Shown here one piece after another: positions 3,815-9,189 of a stretch of 32,000 nucleotides of DNA. The translations under genes were made by a program, and so were the position numbers. How positions within the stretch are numbered: position 1 is the stretch's first letter; each line of letters begins with the position of its first letter. The notes beneath the pieces are model-generated. The model was not told the origin of the DNA. It did no database searches and worked only from the letters and a program-made list of their open reading frames with translations. This stretch comes from Candidatus Heimdallarchaeota archaeon (GTDB lineage Archaea > Asgardarchaeota > Heimdallarchaeia > Heimdallarchaeales > Heimdallarchaeaceae). The stretch is from assembly GCA_030668875.1 (NCBI GenBank), contig DAOVER010000005.1, forward strand, positions 72,342 to 104,341, in the 5' to 3' direction.

Positions 3815-4354
3815 TTAATTTTCTGCTTTGTCAGAATCTGCTAATTCATCGAGATCAAGATCCTCATCTAATTCGAAATCGTCTTCGAAATCGTCACCAA
3901 TATCATCTTCAAGTAATTCGTATTCTTCCTCAAGCGATGTTGCGTCAAGCATATCACCAATTTCATCTATAGTTGCAGGTGGGTTCAAAACCTTAAGTCC
4001 CAAATCAGCTGCATTGTCTAGAATCATTTGCCTCTTACGAGCACCAACGGTGTGCTTAATCATAACTGCTTCAGTTTCTTTATCTATTTCTTCAAGTTCA
4101 TAGATATTAGCAACATGAACTACTTGATAACCCGAAGGATGCAGACCTCTGACAGCTTTTGGTCCCCGGTATCCTATGCTGACCATAGCAGGATAACCTT
4201 TGCGTTTTTCTTTCATTTTATTATCAATACCCTTAGGTTTACGCCAGCTTTTTTTTACTCTCTTGTAACGCCAGCTTTCTTGCCTAACAAAGTTAGGTCT
4301 ACGAGCACTGATTTCTTTACGCTTTTTTAGTAAACGTTTCTTATCGACTGTCAT
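3815..4354 (-). CDS. rpl32e: 50S ribosomal protein eL32 with acidic C-terminal tail
   Basis: FVRQESWRYKRV, WRKPKGID, GYRGPKAVRGLHPSG, VGARKR, KVLNP; followed by about 50 aa rich in D/E. ATG 4354 (GTG 4360 is an alternative). Confidence 0.96.
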   Translation of the reverse strand: MTVDKKRLLKKRKEISARRPNFVRQESWRYKRVKKSWRKPKGIDNKMKEKRKGYPAMVSIGYRGPKAVRGLHPSGYQVVHVANIYELEEIDKETEAVMIKHTVGARKRQMILDNAADLGLKVLNPPATIDEIGDMLDATSLEEEYELLEDDIGDDFEDDFELDEDLDLDELADSDKAEN

Positions 4355-4409
4355 AGGCACTCACAGTAGAATGTTACCTTATTTTGGTTAACCTATCATC
4401 TGGCTGTAG

Positions 4410-4423
4410 TTTTTAATACTTTT
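4410..4423 (-). promoter_or_regulatory. BRE/TATA-like promoter of the eL32-uL15 segment
   Basis: The minus strand reads AAAAGTATTAAAAA about 55 nt upstream of eL32; an identical 14-mer lies at 10124-10137. Confidence 0.6.
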
Positions 4424-4526
4424 TATTGGTAAGAAAAAATGAAGTGAAAAGTTATACTAAACACAAATTTGGGGAAAAAATTAAAAAATTTGCAAAGGTT
4501 TAAAATGTTTTAAGAGGAAATCAATA

Positions 4527-5906
4527 ATGGAATCGAAGAAATTGGACTTATTTGATTCAATGTCTTCAAGAGTAAGTATCCCATTTAATCTTAAGGTAAT
4601 TTATACTTCTTTGTTTGCTATTCTTTATCTCATATTTCTAAATATACCCATTTTCGGCGTGCCTAGTTCAGGAGGAACTGATCCTTTTTTTGCTTTCAGA
4701 GTCATTATGGCATCTCAGAGAGGAAGTTTGGCAGAGTTTGGTATTTTTCCGCTTGTATACGCATCTTTCATTATGCATGTATTGGTGGGGTTAGGAATTT
4801 ACAAAATGGATTTCACACAAGCAGAGAAGAGAAAGAAGTTTTCGATTATAGTTACTATTCTGGGGTTGTTTTTCTCTCTCACATCATCTTTATGTTATGT
4901 AATTTTTGGTGCTTATGGAGAGATAAGTGTTGATCAAGGTTTTATAATCATTCCTCAATTATTGCTTGCTAGTACTCTTATAATAATAATTGACTATTTC
5001 ATGAGAAAAGGGTACGGATTGAGCTCTGGTGTAAGCTTGTTTATAGTAGTCAGTGTTTCACGAACTATCTTTGATGGTATGTTCAGTTTAAGTCAATTAA
5101 GAGTTGGAGGTTTTGATTGGTACAGAGGTTGTATTCTCGCATTCATTCAAGGTATCTTTAAAGAAGACCCAGATATACTGACACCACTCATCAGACCGGG
5201 TTTAACACCTGATTTTCTGGGATTCATTTTAGCAATTATAGTGTTTGGAATGACGATATTCTTTGTATCCTTTACCATAAAGAGACCATTCTATCAGAGA
5301 GATCAAATTACAAAATCATCGATGACAGCTCAATCATTATACAACTATTCTAATTCCGTAGTAATAACCAGTTCATTTTTTGCAAATATTTCCTTCGTTT
5401 CAAATATGATGTTTAATACATGGAGCTCATTTTCAACGGGATTTAGAAGTTTGTTGGTTAGTTTCTTCGGTAGATGGGAGACGATAGAAGGCACGAATCA
5501 GCTAGCTCCAGTTTCGGGGCTAGCGGCTTTTACAACCCCTCCATATGGGGTTGAACAAATTACACAACATCCGTGGAATACTTCGGTGTATTTTCTATTT
5601 ATGATTGTATATAGTATCCTTATGTCTAGATTATTAGTAAAAACATCAGGAAAGGAAAATGTAAGTATTCTAAAAGGAACAGACATATTTAATCAAGAAA
5701 AATATGAAGTCACTAATTTCCCTTTAGCATTATTAGCTGGTTTTTTCATGGGGTTTTTAGCAGGGTTTTTTAACATCATTTCTCCATTGGGAACAGGAGT
5801 AGGTATTCTAATAACAACGTGCATACTGAAACAACTCTTGGACATCATTTCCCATGAAAAATCCAAATGGAATGAATCAAGAAAAAATACGGAAATTAAT
5901 AAATAA
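4527..5906 (+). CDS. secY: SecY/Sec61-alpha homologue, divergent (probable paralogue)
   Basis: About 10 hydrophobic segments; NIPIFG (TM1), RVIMASQRGSLAEFGIFP (plug/TM2), KGYGLSSGVSLFI, FFANI, LGTGVGILIT (TM10). Several canonical motifs are altered (see findings). Confidence 0.88.
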   Translation: MESKKLDLFDSMSSRVSIPFNLKVIYTSLFAILYLIFLNIPIFGVPSSGGTDPFFAFRVIMASQRGSLAEFGIFPLVYASFIMHVLVGLGIYKMDFTQAEKRKKFSIIVTILGLFFSLTSSLCYVIFGAYGEISVDQGFIIIPQLLLASTLIIIIDYFMRKGYGLSSGVSLFIVVSVSRTIFDGMFSLSQLRVGGFDWYRGCILAFIQGIFKEDPDILTPLIRPGLTPDFLGFILAIIVFGMTIFFVSFTIKRPFYQRDQITKSSMTAQSLYNYSNSVVITSSFFANISFVSNMMFNTWSSFSTGFRSLLVSFFGRWETIEGTNQLAPVSGLAAFTTPPYGVEQITQHPWNTSVYFLFMIVYSILMSRLLVKTSGKENVSILKGTDIFNQEKYEVTNFPLALLAGFFMGFLAGFFNIISPLGTGVGILITTCILKQLLDIISHEKSKWNESRKNTEINK

Positions 5907-5944
5907 AAAATCAAGAAACATTAAGAAAAATAAAAAAAGAAGAA
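5907..5944 (-). terminator. Oligo-T terminator after uL6
   Basis: A-rich tract on + (T-rich on the uL6 coding strand) between the converging stops of the secY homologue and uL6. Confidence 0.5.
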
Positions 5945-5952
5945 TTGGAAAC

Positions 5953-6504
5953 TTATTCGCTTGCCCACTTCCAGATTCCATCCATAAATGTTTCAGGATC
6001 TTTCTTTCTCTTACCCCTTAATCTACAGATTTCTTTCATGTTGGTAGTGGTTTGTCCTACAGCTTCTTTATCGATACCTTCTATGATAACATCATCTTTG
6101 TCAACCTTAACAGTTGTATCATCTCCTACAATAGGAACAATCAAAGGTTTTCTTCCTCCATAGAGGTTCTTGATTGTTATTAGACGTTTCTTGTTATCAG
6201 GTTCAACTGTAATTGGAAAATGGCTGAAGATTATTTTTGATCTATAGACATAACCTTCTGTTACACCTATCATCATGTTTTTGAGATGACCTACAACGGC
6301 AAGCATTTTTGCCTTTTTCTTTTTGTCAACGAAATAGGATTTGACATTGATTTTATCTTTTGACTTCTTTAGTTCTACCTTGAAACCCTCGAAGTTTTTG
6401 ATAAGTTTACCTCTTTTACCTTCCATGGTAACTATAGTTCCGTCAATAGTTATCTTCAAATCCTCAAGTAATTCAACATCTCGTTCAATATATACTTGTT
6501 TCAT
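5953..6504 (-). CDS. rpl6: 50S ribosomal protein uL6
   Basis: VTMEGKRGKL, HLKNMMIGVTEGY, FSHFPITV, DKEAVGQTT, KDPETFMDGIW. ATG 6504 follows SD GGTGA (ORF track start is GTG 6513). Confidence 0.96.
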   Translation of the reverse strand: MKQVYIERDVELLEDLKITIDGTIVTMEGKRGKLIKNFEGFKVELKKSKDKINVKSYFVDKKKKAKMLAVVGHLKNMMIGVTEGYVYRSKIIFSHFPITVEPDNKKRLITIKNLYGGRKPLIVPIVGDDTTVKVDKDDVIIEGIDKEAVGQTTTNMKEICRLRGKRKKDPETFMDGIWKWASE

Positions 6505-6513
6505 TATCATCAC

Positions 6514-7661: not shown

Positions 7662-8416
7662 TTCTTATCACCTTCGTTACCAGCAATTGTTACACTTGGA
7701 GTATCATTGCCCACAATGAAAATATATCTGAACAGTGTAACGAAAATCTCACCATCAGGTGTCTTTATGGTCGCTGTTTTAGTTTTTTGTGTTCCATGAG
7801 AACTGATTTCTTCAATAGTTCCATGCTTACCCATCCACCTTCCACTAGTTACAATACCATAATTACCTATTTTCAATTCGTATTTTTCTAAAATCTTTTG
7901 ATCTGGTAAAGATATCTTAACTGTGTCATGTGTATGGTAAGGAACACTATCGCTTTCAGATTTCTGTAAGATGATGTTTCTACCATCATGGAGATTTAGT
8001 TGTGTTAGACCTCCTTTGAGTGTAGTCTTATTCTTAATTTGGCAGAGTTTAACTTTTGTTTCATCTTCCTTAATTGGAATTGTCCTTAGACCTTTCTTCG
8101 GAGTATATACTAATCTATAATGTTCTTTTATTTTTGGGAAGGAAATAACATCCATGAAACCTAGTGGGTATTTTCTGTTTGTTTTTATTTTTCCATCTAT
8201 GAGAACATTTCTTTCAACCAATATACGTTTAACTTCACTCATGTTTCGAGCTACTCGGAACATATCACGGAGCATAATGGCCATTGGAATACATTCATGT
8301 GCAGCATGAGGACCAGGAGAGGGTTTAACCGTATAAGTATTAGCTTTCTTTTCAATAGGTATATGTTTTGAAACAACGAATCTCTTCAGATGTCGTTTTC
8401 CACCGCCTTTTGTCAT
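7658..8416 (-). CDS. rps4e: 30S ribosomal protein eS4
   Basis: HLKR, PSPGPH, YPLGFMDVI, QLNLHDGRNI; ATGA overlaps with both neighbours. Confidence 0.97.
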   Translation of the reverse strand: MTKGGGKRHLKRFVVSKHIPIEKKANTYTVKPSPGPHAAHECIPMAIMLRDMFRVARNMSEVKRILVERNVLIDGKIKTNRKYPLGFMDVISFPKIKEHYRLVYTPKKGLRTIPIKEDETKVKLCQIKNKTTLKGGLTQLNLHDGRNIILQKSESDSVPYHTHDTVKISLPDQKILEKYELKIGNYGIVTSGRWMGKHGTIEEISSHGTQKTKTATIKTPDGEIFVTLFRYIFIVGNDTPSVTIAGNEGDKK

Positions 8417-9189
8417 ACTAATTCCTCCTTTTTATCTGTTTTCTCAGAAAGCAAATCTTCTGCGTTAGCACTCATAGTTTTTGCTGTACCAGGACCAATA
8501 CCAGGTACTTTTGAAAGCTCTTCTGAGGTTGCTTTGGCAATCTTATCAACAGTATCAAAACCATTTTCTTTGAGAAGCATTGCGGTTTTAGCACCTATGC
8601 CCTTAATCATAGATATGTCAAGGTCAGAAACTTTGGTCTCCTCCTTGGGAGCTGCTTCTACAACATCTTTAGGAGCATCAGTTTCGTCAAGATCTTCGAA
8701 TTCTTCAAAAATATCCTCTTCAAGATCTTCATCTTCTTCTTCGACATCAGATTCTTCTAAAGGCTCATCGAATTCATCAAATAGATCTTCAGTTAATTCT
8801 TCTTCAGTAAGTTCTTTTCTAGAACGTCTCTTAATGATCTCCCTTCTCTTTTTATCACGTAAATTCAGAGAAGTAATTATGATGTTGCTTGGATGAACAG
8901 GAAAACTAGAGACTGTACCATCAGCTTTTTCCTTACTATATCCTTCGATATGAACTGAATATTTCTGAGGTAAAACACGGATTACTTTACCTTTAATCTC
9001 TTGGTCTTCAGATTTAGCTCTGAAAACCAGTACTTTGTCATCTTTATGTACAGGAAGACGTCGAATACCATATTTATTTCTCAATTCACGTGAGAGAAGA
9101 GCAGTCATTTGACGATTGCGAAGATGTAAAGGAGCAGTATAATACCTCTTACGTTGTTTACGAGGTTGTTTTGTTTTTGTATATCTCAT
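8413..9189 (-). CDS. rpl24p: 50S ribosomal protein uL24 fused to an acidic linker and a C-terminal tandem helix-hairpin-helix domain
   Basis: aa 1-120 match uL24 (KQPRKQRK...APLH, ELRNKYGIRRLPV, VHPSNIIIT); aa 126-170 are D/E rich; aa 190-247 read ISMIKGIGAKTA...LSKVPGIGPGTA (two HhH motifs). Confidence 0.93.
   Translation of the reverse strand: MRYTKTKQPRKQRKRYYTAPLHLRNRQMTALLSRELRNKYGIRRLPVHKDDKVLVFRAKSEDQEIKGKVIRVLPQKYSVHIEGYSKEKADGTVSSFPVHPSNIIITSLNLRDKKRREIIKRRSRKELTEEELTEDLFDEFDEPLEESDVEEEDEDLEEDIFEEFEDLDETDAPKDVVEAAPKEETKVSDLDISMIKGIGAKTAMLLKENGFDTVDKIAKATSEELSKVPGIGPGTAKTMSANAEDLLSEKTDKKEELV

Follow-up and report, generated by a model that had tools for sequence, protein, structure and literature searches.

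A second, divergent SecY lacking the canonical ribosome-docking loop tip, encoded within the split spc operon of a Heimdallarchaeaceae genome

Archaea normally have one copy of SecY/Sec61-alpha, an essential protein that evolves slowly, and Heimdallarchaeia count among the archaea most closely related to eukaryotes. Here we describe a gene, which we call SecY2A, for a divergent SecY/Sec61-alpha homolog lying within the ribosomal-protein genes of a Candidatus Heimdallarchaeota archaeon (assembly GCA_030668875.1). It is carried by a stretch of 32,000 nucleotides of contig DAOVER010000005.1 (positions 72,342 to 104,341), referred to below as the window, whose own numbering is used unless another contig is named. 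In mammalian Sec61, loop 8/9 and Sec61-gamma together make the most extensive contact with the ribosome, the universally conserved Arg405 stacks on ribosomal RNA, and loop 6/7 adds K268 and R273 to the contact (PMC4081569). The loop 8/9 Arg is conserved in all characterized orthologs, except in Giardia, where it is Lys (PMC4588681). Our search of the literature found no report of a SecY paralog in an archaeon.

The source genome (G000; 3.23 Mb, 99 contigs, 92% complete) encodes two SecY proteins, and SecY2A is the second, distinct from the housekeeping copy. The canonical protein, SecY1, is encoded on the plus strand at about 70837-72291 of contig C68 (L001:1270-2724), ending just 5′ of the window and 5 kb from SecY2A; it has 484 residues, matches PF00344 with 231 bits and carries LGIGPIVTAG, YPIKFLYTSNIP and IPGFRRNPR. 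The two proteins are 49% identical, and the lone long gap in their alignment removes 12 residues over IPGFRRNPRIV. The original prediction, made from the letters of the window, had described a divergent SecY homolog placed antisense between the genes for the ribosomal proteins uL6 and eL32, and not after uL15, and had argued that it was not the housekeeping channel. The reading frame at 4527-5906 is indeed intact, Pfam identified its neighbors as expected, and the three strings quoted in that prediction (FGIFPLVYASFIMHVL, MTAQSLYNYSNSV and TSGKENVSILKGTDIFNQEKYEVTNFP) occur in the translation, while the copy with IPGFR, TSNIP and LGIGPIVTAG lies elsewhere in the genome. With two copies in G000, SecY2A is not the sole secY, and no housekeeping SecY of the genus has a shortened loop: every one keeps loop 8/9. 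Given the second, canonical copy and the full loop in the housekeeping proteins of the genus, the reading of SecY2A as simply a diverged ortholog fails. A third candidate on contig C66 was rejected as noise, as it matches PF00344 with 16 bits, contains an internal TGA and lies amid HepT/MNT and VapBC toxin-antitoxin genes; that region (C66:5031-8192, L003) is a cluster of nucleotidyltransferase/HepT and VapB/PIN toxin-antitoxin pairs. In annotation, the name "preprotein translocase subunit SecY" should not be used for both SecY1 and SecY2A.

The gene and three segments in which it departs from SecY1 are the following:

4527 to 5906, plus strand: SecY2A, divergent SecY/Sec61-alpha paralog, 459 residues plus stop, frame intact
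4734 to 4790, plus strand: transmembrane helix (TM) 2b, the lateral-gate helix, rewritten to AEFGIFPLVYASFIMHVLV, residues 70-88
5268 to 5360, plus strand: loop 6/7 and entry of TM7, RYPIK..YTSNIP motif replaced, residues 248-278, predicted local distance difference test score (pLDDT) below 50
5649 to 5717, plus strand: loop 8/9, residues 375-397, shortened by a deletion of 12 residues, Arg-free, with a net charge of -1

Loop 8/9 has 41 residues, a charge of +4 and five Arg in SecY1, and 28 residues, a charge of -1 and no Arg in SecY2A. The loop had been predicted to be short and devoid of both IPG(F/Y)R and Arg, which agrees with the 12-residue deletion and with the lack of Arg in residues 372-399. 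The charge of the N-terminal tail falls from +9 in SecY1 to +2 in SecY2A, and both the basic N-terminal helix and the C-tail of SecY1 are replaced. Loop 6/7 is net positive in the two proteins (+3 in SecY2A), although the RYPIK hairpin motif is gone from SecY2A; the stretch from this loop to the TM7 entry reads SSMTAQSLYNYSNSV in place of the (R)YPIK..YTSNIP motif. TM2b changes from LGIGPIVTAG to FGIFPLVYAS. In the lateral gate, the alignment places Tyr at the equivalent of T86 and Ser at that of Q127, the NIP of TM7 becomes NSV, and the N300 equivalent is kept in SecY2A of G000 and is Ser in the copy of its relative G016. The pore-ring positions are by the same alignment I, V, V, I, V and I/L, and the plug is likewise hydrophobic, with conservative changes. 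These assignments follow what we take to be the human Sec61A1 numbering of the pore ring (I81, V85, I179, I183, I292 and L449) and of the gate (T86, Q127 and N300).

Despite these changes SecY2A is recognizable as a member of its family. The Plug_translocon domain (PF10559) was found by Pfam after TM1, at residues 32-66 (40.5 bits, E 2.2e-10), and a six-frame search of the genome gave a PF00344 match of 53.1 bits against a cut-off of 32.2. PF00344 is also in the precomputed Pfam list of P0001; however, when the SecY2A protein alone was run through hmmscan, PF00344 was not listed and the Plug domain was the only match. The AlphaFold2 model, built on an alignment of 27 rows, has a pLDDT of 78 and a predicted template-modeling score of 0.80, with low confidence only at the termini, in loop 6/7 (252-271) and in loop 8/9 (377-395). 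A Foldseek search with this model returned the Sec61-alpha chain 7tm3_1 first (TM-score 0.82, E 5.6e-25) and the Methanocaldococcus jannaschii SecY (1rhz_A) lower, at 0.74. The model has the ten-helix SecY/Sec61-alpha fold. By sequence, too, the best solved relatives are eukaryotic Sec61-alpha proteins (182 bits) ahead of archaeal SecY (95 bits). For the two alpha subunits, our search of the genome for paralogs of SecE or Sec61-beta able to pair with SecY2A found a single copy of each above the cut-off, SecE at L040:1486-1686 on the minus strand and Sec61-beta at L046:1444-1635 on the plus strand. Co-folding of SecY2A with SecE scored 0.55 against 0.00 for the best of 3 controls, with runs agreeing in at least 92% of contacts and a partner pLDDT of at least 71, although similar complexes have been solved and the pass may be memory. 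Of 80 solved complexes 58 reached the mark used, as did 2 of 110 mismatched pairs; scores at or below 0.60 account for 7 of the 80 and for both passing mismatches. The prediction lends weak support to SecE binding by SecY2A.

To place the paralog in its lineage, we surveyed 24 species genomes of one Heimdallarchaeaceae genus together with metagenomic relatives. SecY1 is present in 24 of 24 and a second copy in five (G000, G016, G004, G006 and G018); as most congeners do without a SecY2, SecY2A is non-essential. The second copies come in two forms. Y2A is the form of G000 and G016, the latter copy lying at the same site and split over two contig ends. Y2B, found in G004, G006 and G018, has 428-433 residues, keeps IPGFRE, is without the L7/8 insertion and has moved to other places in the genome. 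The ribosomal proteins on the contigs of the metagenomic relatives are as distant from those of G000 as are those of other members of the genus. Among their paralogs, P0015 (L049) keeps IPGFRE and P0075 (L051) has the whole of loop 8/9 deleted, and both lie on the plus strand between eL32 and uL6 on the minus strand, P0015 in exactly this arrangement; P0016 is convergent with uL6 and has a Lactamase_B gene nearby, and P0086 also lacks loop 8/9. The insertion site between eL32 and uL6 is hence common to four lineages (G000, G016, L049 and L051). Most members of the family keep IPGFRE. The loop 8/9 deletions of P0075 and P0086 differ from that of SecY2A and are larger; the three lineages deleted the loop independently. 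The whole family is without the N-terminal SKFLMLFKPF helix and the C-tail, and most members share the derived residues AEFGI[FIL]P for AELGIGP and FRx for MRA, with P0075 and P0086 keeping Leu at the AEL position.

Two segments of SecY2A stand apart from this divergence, each covering an outer loop:

5037 to 5201, plus strand: conversion tract 1, residues about 171-225, end of TM5 and outer loop L5/6, 87-90% nucleotide identity to SecY1, 15/16 to 16/17 codons
5457 to 5576, plus strand: conversion tract 2, residues about 311-350, outer loop L7/8 including its eukaryote-like insertion, 83-85% nucleotide identity to SecY1, 13/16 to 13/17 codons

The codon figures are the identical codons at identical residues between SecY2A and SecY1 of G000. 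Tract 1 contains a 28-nucleotide exact match to SecY1. Since synonymous sites are near-identical in these tracts, which selection on the protein cannot preserve, we read them as gene conversion, in G000 confined to the two outer loops of genes that lie 5 kb apart in direct orientation. The region of TM1 and the plug is different: it is 80-85% identical to SecY1 in protein, but only 4/17 to 6/16 codons match, and a likeness in protein despite saturated synonymous sites argues for selection and not for conversion. In G016 a further tract is 95.5% identical to the SecY1 of that genome. An assembly chimera at the contig end was considered as its source, but as the SecY1-like stretch is 95.5% and not 100% identical, a real conversion tract is more likely. 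A weaker conversion-like signal covers L5/6 of Y2B in G004 and G006. Through conversion, each paralog locally resembles the SecY1 of its own host despite the age of the family.

A tree of 46 sequences built without the conversion tracts placed all ten paralogs, SecY2A among them, in one clade with 99/99 support (100/100 in the first tree). The clade branches off at the basal polytomy of the SecY1 radiation of the genus. Forcing Y2A to be sister to the SecY1 of its own clade cost 30.5 log-likelihood units (approximately unbiased [AU] test, p 0.03). The single clade carries a concern of long-branch attraction; the shared insertion site, evidence that is independent of the tree, also supports a single origin of the family. 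A recent duplication in the G000 clade, which the local likeness to SecY1 might suggest, was rejected on the saturated synonymous sites outside the tracts, the tract-free tree, the AU test and the presence of the same site in distant congeners.

Comparison with the ortholog in G016 shows how SecY2A has been evolving. Both frames are open, and the ratio of nonsynonymous to synonymous substitution rates (dN/dS) comes to 0.235 for 337 codons and 0.315 for another 118; between the same two genomes it is 0.018 for SecY1, 0.064 for the oxidoreductase gene beyond uL15 and 0.06-0.18 for ribosomal proteins, including uL5 and eS4. We read this as real but relaxed purifying selection on SecY2A. The constraint is uneven. 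Residues 74-88 of the rewritten TM2b are 93% identical in G016 with a dN/dS of 0.06, TM6 has a dN/dS of 0.08, and identity reaches 91% with a dN/dS of 0.21 in the shortened loop 8/9, while TM1, like loop 6/7 and TM3, is loosely constrained between the two genomes; as the segments are short, the values for each are rough. As the two novel segments, TM2b and the shortened loop, have stayed alike in both species, we do not take the gene for a dead copy. Nucleotide identity between G000 and G016 is 90-99% over the block from the oxidoreductase gene to eL32 and the spacer that follows, 64-66% in the 5′ half of SecY2A and 77-88% in its 3′ half; against L024 the collapse is seen over 4601-5000. Synonymous divergence is 0.8-2.7 in the N-terminal segments and 0.07-0.36 in flanking genes. 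The G000 and G016 copies are mutual nearest relatives in every segment, which rules out replacement of the N-terminal half from another known Y2 lineage as the cause; the high values may reflect either alleles older than the species split, with recombination from an unsampled Y2A, or a raised local mutation rate.

The gene interrupts the spc operon, with these elements around it:

3815 to 4360, minus strand: eL32 (Pfam Ribosomal_L32e, 2.1e-41), with which the downstream half of the split spc operon begins
4361 to 4526, no strand: divergent spacer between eL32 and SecY2A, 166 bp
5953 to 6513, minus strand: uL6 (Pfam Ribosomal_L6), with which the upstream half of the operon ends, convergent with SecY2A

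On the minus strand the run reads uS17-uL14-uL24-eS4-uL5-uS8-uL6, then, after SecY2A, eL32-eL19-uL18-uS5-uL30-uL15. SecY2A is thus antisense to the run and not in the typical position of secY after uL15, where a GFO/IDH/MocA oxidoreductase gene (3-941) and no secY is found. The stops of SecY2A and uL6 are 46 bp apart. The spacer on the other side, a putative promoter region, contains two short motifs before the ATG, a TATA-like TTTAAAAT (4499-4506, some 21-28 bp upstream) and a GAGG (4514-4517). G016 matches the aligned stretch 4340-4560 with 94% identity, the part right before the ATG being conserved. In a study of Asgard ribosomal-protein clusters, the spc cluster of some Heimdallarchaeota was noted to be interrupted between uL6 and L32e, with no mention of a secY at that place (PMC10833476). 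SecY1 is also inverted relative to the spc operon, with the oxidoreductase gene between it and uL15; this inverted SecY1 convergent with the oxidoreductase recurs throughout the genus, most species having an extra 3-4 kb with a methyltransferase gene before uL15. In the same run, uL24 (8413-9189, minus strand) joins a Ribosomal_L26 domain (residues 6-122) to a C-terminal extension holding a helix-hairpin-helix domain (HHH_5, residues 191-239, E 1.8e-13). The uL24 beside P0016 has the extension as well, and those of L049 and L051 (188-190 residues) are without it.

The surroundings of Y2B are of another kind. In G018 and G004 it lies near genes with a Recombinase domain (PF07508; L027:2273-3169 and L028:3549-4523), and in G006 and on the contig of P0069 it is divergent from an open reading frame of about 164 residues and a gene for a metallo-beta-lactamase-fold protein. 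A 472-residue polytopic membrane protein encoded beside Y2B was considered as a partner and discarded, since five full-length paralogs are scattered over G000 with no specific linkage. These proteins of about 480 residues have no Pfam match (G000 C29:47851-49227, C10:27996-29366, C98:7502-8839, C22:10637-12031 and C3:43636-44973), and a relative of them is encoded directly downstream of Y2B in G018.

We propose, with a probability of roughly 55%, that SecY2A is a live, non-housekeeping accessory channel that derives from an old duplication and works without canonical ribosome docking, a role that we infer from its sequence. A single duplication would have been followed, early in the radiation of the genus, by antisense insertion between uL6 and eL32. 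The parts that make a channel have been retained, namely TM1, the plug, the hydrophobic pore ring, the ten-helix fold and probably the SecE interface, as have both outer loops, which recurrent gene conversion would keep in register with SecY1. Most of the cytosolic features that dock the ribosome have been lost: the Arg-bearing tip of loop 8/9, the hairpin motif RYPIK in loop 6/7 and the basic helix at the N-terminus. The lateral gate has been re-made at TM2b and the TM7 entry. In the membrane, SecY2A would then work with the shared SecE and Sec61-beta and with the outside partners of SecY1, and would handle its substrates without canonical docking, as a post-translational or specialized channel or insertase or as an accessory module beside SecY1, with a threshold for signal sequences and TM segments different from that of SecY1. 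Asgard archaea encode homologs of oligosaccharyltransferase (OST) and of the TRAP (translocon-associated protein) complex (PMC10307638), which are possible shared outside partners of SecY1 and SecY2A. The ribosome-independence of SecY2A would follow from the published knowledge of loop 8/9 (PMC4081569; PMC4588681), and three independent deletions (Y2A, P0075 and P0086) argue for a role of the family that does not depend on this loop. A bolder version, in which SecY2A is a ribosome-free Sec61-alpha channel that shares SecE, Sec61-beta and OST/TRAP-like partners, is kept compatible with them by loop-restricted conversion, and would be the first post-translational-type accessory translocon of archaea, is in our judgment unlikely.

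Several observations weigh against an accessory channel. We know of no post-translational Sec motor in archaea. The flanks of SecY2A hold only ribosomal-protein genes, with no dedicated partner, motor or substrate gene adjoining, and a search for RNA sequencing runs covering 4300-6000 listed none. The pore-ring and gate assignments come from alignment and not from structure. Some ribosome binding by SecY2A is also possible, given the +3 charge of loop 6/7 and the contacts that SecE makes with the ribosome. Further points concern its evolution and lend themselves to the strongest of the other explanations, a redundant duplicate that is slowly dying, with motifs eroding, and whose open frame and dN/dS below 1 would reflect residual selection only against a toxic misfolded membrane protein. 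The family is patchy, 19 of the 24 species genomes having one secY, and it evolves very fast: branch lengths are 0.4-2.4 for the paralogs against 0.003-0.1 for SecY1, and between G000 and G016 the dN of SecY2A exceeds that of SecY1 about 29-fold. Loop 6/7 (residues 248-274, dN/dS 0.65) and TM3 (46% identity) are nearly free of constraint, loop 8/9 has been lost repeatedly and independently, and SecY2A scores under the housekeeping equivalog cut-offs of NCBIfam (190.2 bits against 300 and 91.8 against 253.6 for NF006341 and TIGR00967). In G021, a close relative sharing 95% identity with G000 in SecY1, the synteny is the same and the site is empty, with 191 bp between eL32 and uL6 (L029:6553-6743); it is also empty in G001, G009, G004 and G018. 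About 85 bp of left flank and 35 bp of right flank of the G021 spacer are common with G000, and the approximately 88 bp between them are probably a deletion scar; given the age of the family, the empty site in G021 is best read as a loss.

A decaying copy fits less well with what has persisted. The family still counts ten intact members, preserved from about the time when the genus began to radiate, and the dN/dS of SecY2A stays at 0.24-0.32 across 455 codons although the genome is AT-rich and stops arise easily in it. The derived TM2b and loop 8/9 are among its best-conserved parts, and the promoter-proximal spacer is conserved as well. We consider decay improbable on this account, although it is the alternative that best withstands the evidence. 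A smaller chance falls to SecY2A being a regulator or sink, that is, a look-alike that is dead as a channel and tunes translocon capacity by competing for SecE and Sec61-beta or for OST/TRAP-like partners, or a passive second subunit paired with SecY1. The single SecE and Sec61-beta available to two alpha subunits, the outer loops held identical to SecY1 and the loss of docking features would suit such a protein, and its place inside a ribosomal-protein operon could tie its expression to growth. However, a protein that only acts as a sink would have no use for the plug and pore ring, which selection has conserved, the rewritten TM2b is strongly constrained, and neither competition nor dimerization has direct support. 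Very improbable, finally, is a decoy that shows the external loops of SecY1 on a protein the cell can spare and so draws away an agent, such as a virus or toxin, that exploits the outer face of SecY: it would explain arms-race-like evolution, the conversion that keeps just the two exposed loops SecY1-like while the remainder diverges, the nucleotide identity of sister species, which is 90-99% around the gene and drops to 64-66% inside it, where synonymous divergence exceeds the level of the flanks, and the recombinase genes adjoining Y2B relatives, but it is pure inference, we know of no Asgard virus or toxin that uses SecY, conversion tracts may simply last where they are tolerated, and a decoy has no need of a conserved TM2b and plug.

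If SecY2A is indeed an accessory channel, it would be a natural experiment that separates co-translational from ribosome-independent Sec transport and, if active, it would help to dissect which features of Sec61 serve ribosome docking, gating and the outside partners. The limitation of conversion to two exoplasmic loops points to surfaces that would need to match shared partners. The family also bears on the diversification of Sec61-type translocons in the lineage leading to eukaryotes, though SecY2A is not ancestral to any eukaryotic paralog.

Set against known systems, SecY2A shares with housekeeping archaeal SecY/Sec61-alpha (PF00344) the ten-helix fold, the plug, the hydrophobic pore ring, GYGLxSG and the eukaryote-like L7/8 insertion, and differs in the absence of the loop 8/9 tip with its Arg and of RYPIK/TSNIP, in its antisense place in the spc operon and in a dN about 30 times faster. 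The SecA2-SecY2 system of Gram-positive bacteria likewise has a second, divergent and non-essential SecY, presumably for non-canonical transport, but the analogy is one of role only: by the tree, SecY2A arose independently inside one Heimdallarchaeaceae genus, and with no SecA2, Asp, glycosyltransferase or serine-rich substrate gene beside it, it does not belong to that system. To our knowledge, archaea lack SecA. Yeast Ssh1 and vertebrate Sec61A2 resemble SecY2A as lineage-specific duplicates of the alpha subunit that share the small subunits with the main channel, although the trees show SecY2A to be unrelated to the eukaryotic duplications; moreover, Ssh1 keeps ribosome docking, having been solved on the 80S ribosome (PDB 2ww9), whereas SecY2A is without the docking loop. 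Giardia Sec61-alpha is also a natural departure from the conserved loop 8/9 Arg (PMC4588681), but there the protein is the sole copy and Arg is replaced by Lys in a full-length loop, whereas SecY2A is a second copy in which the tip is deleted and the remaining loop is net negative.

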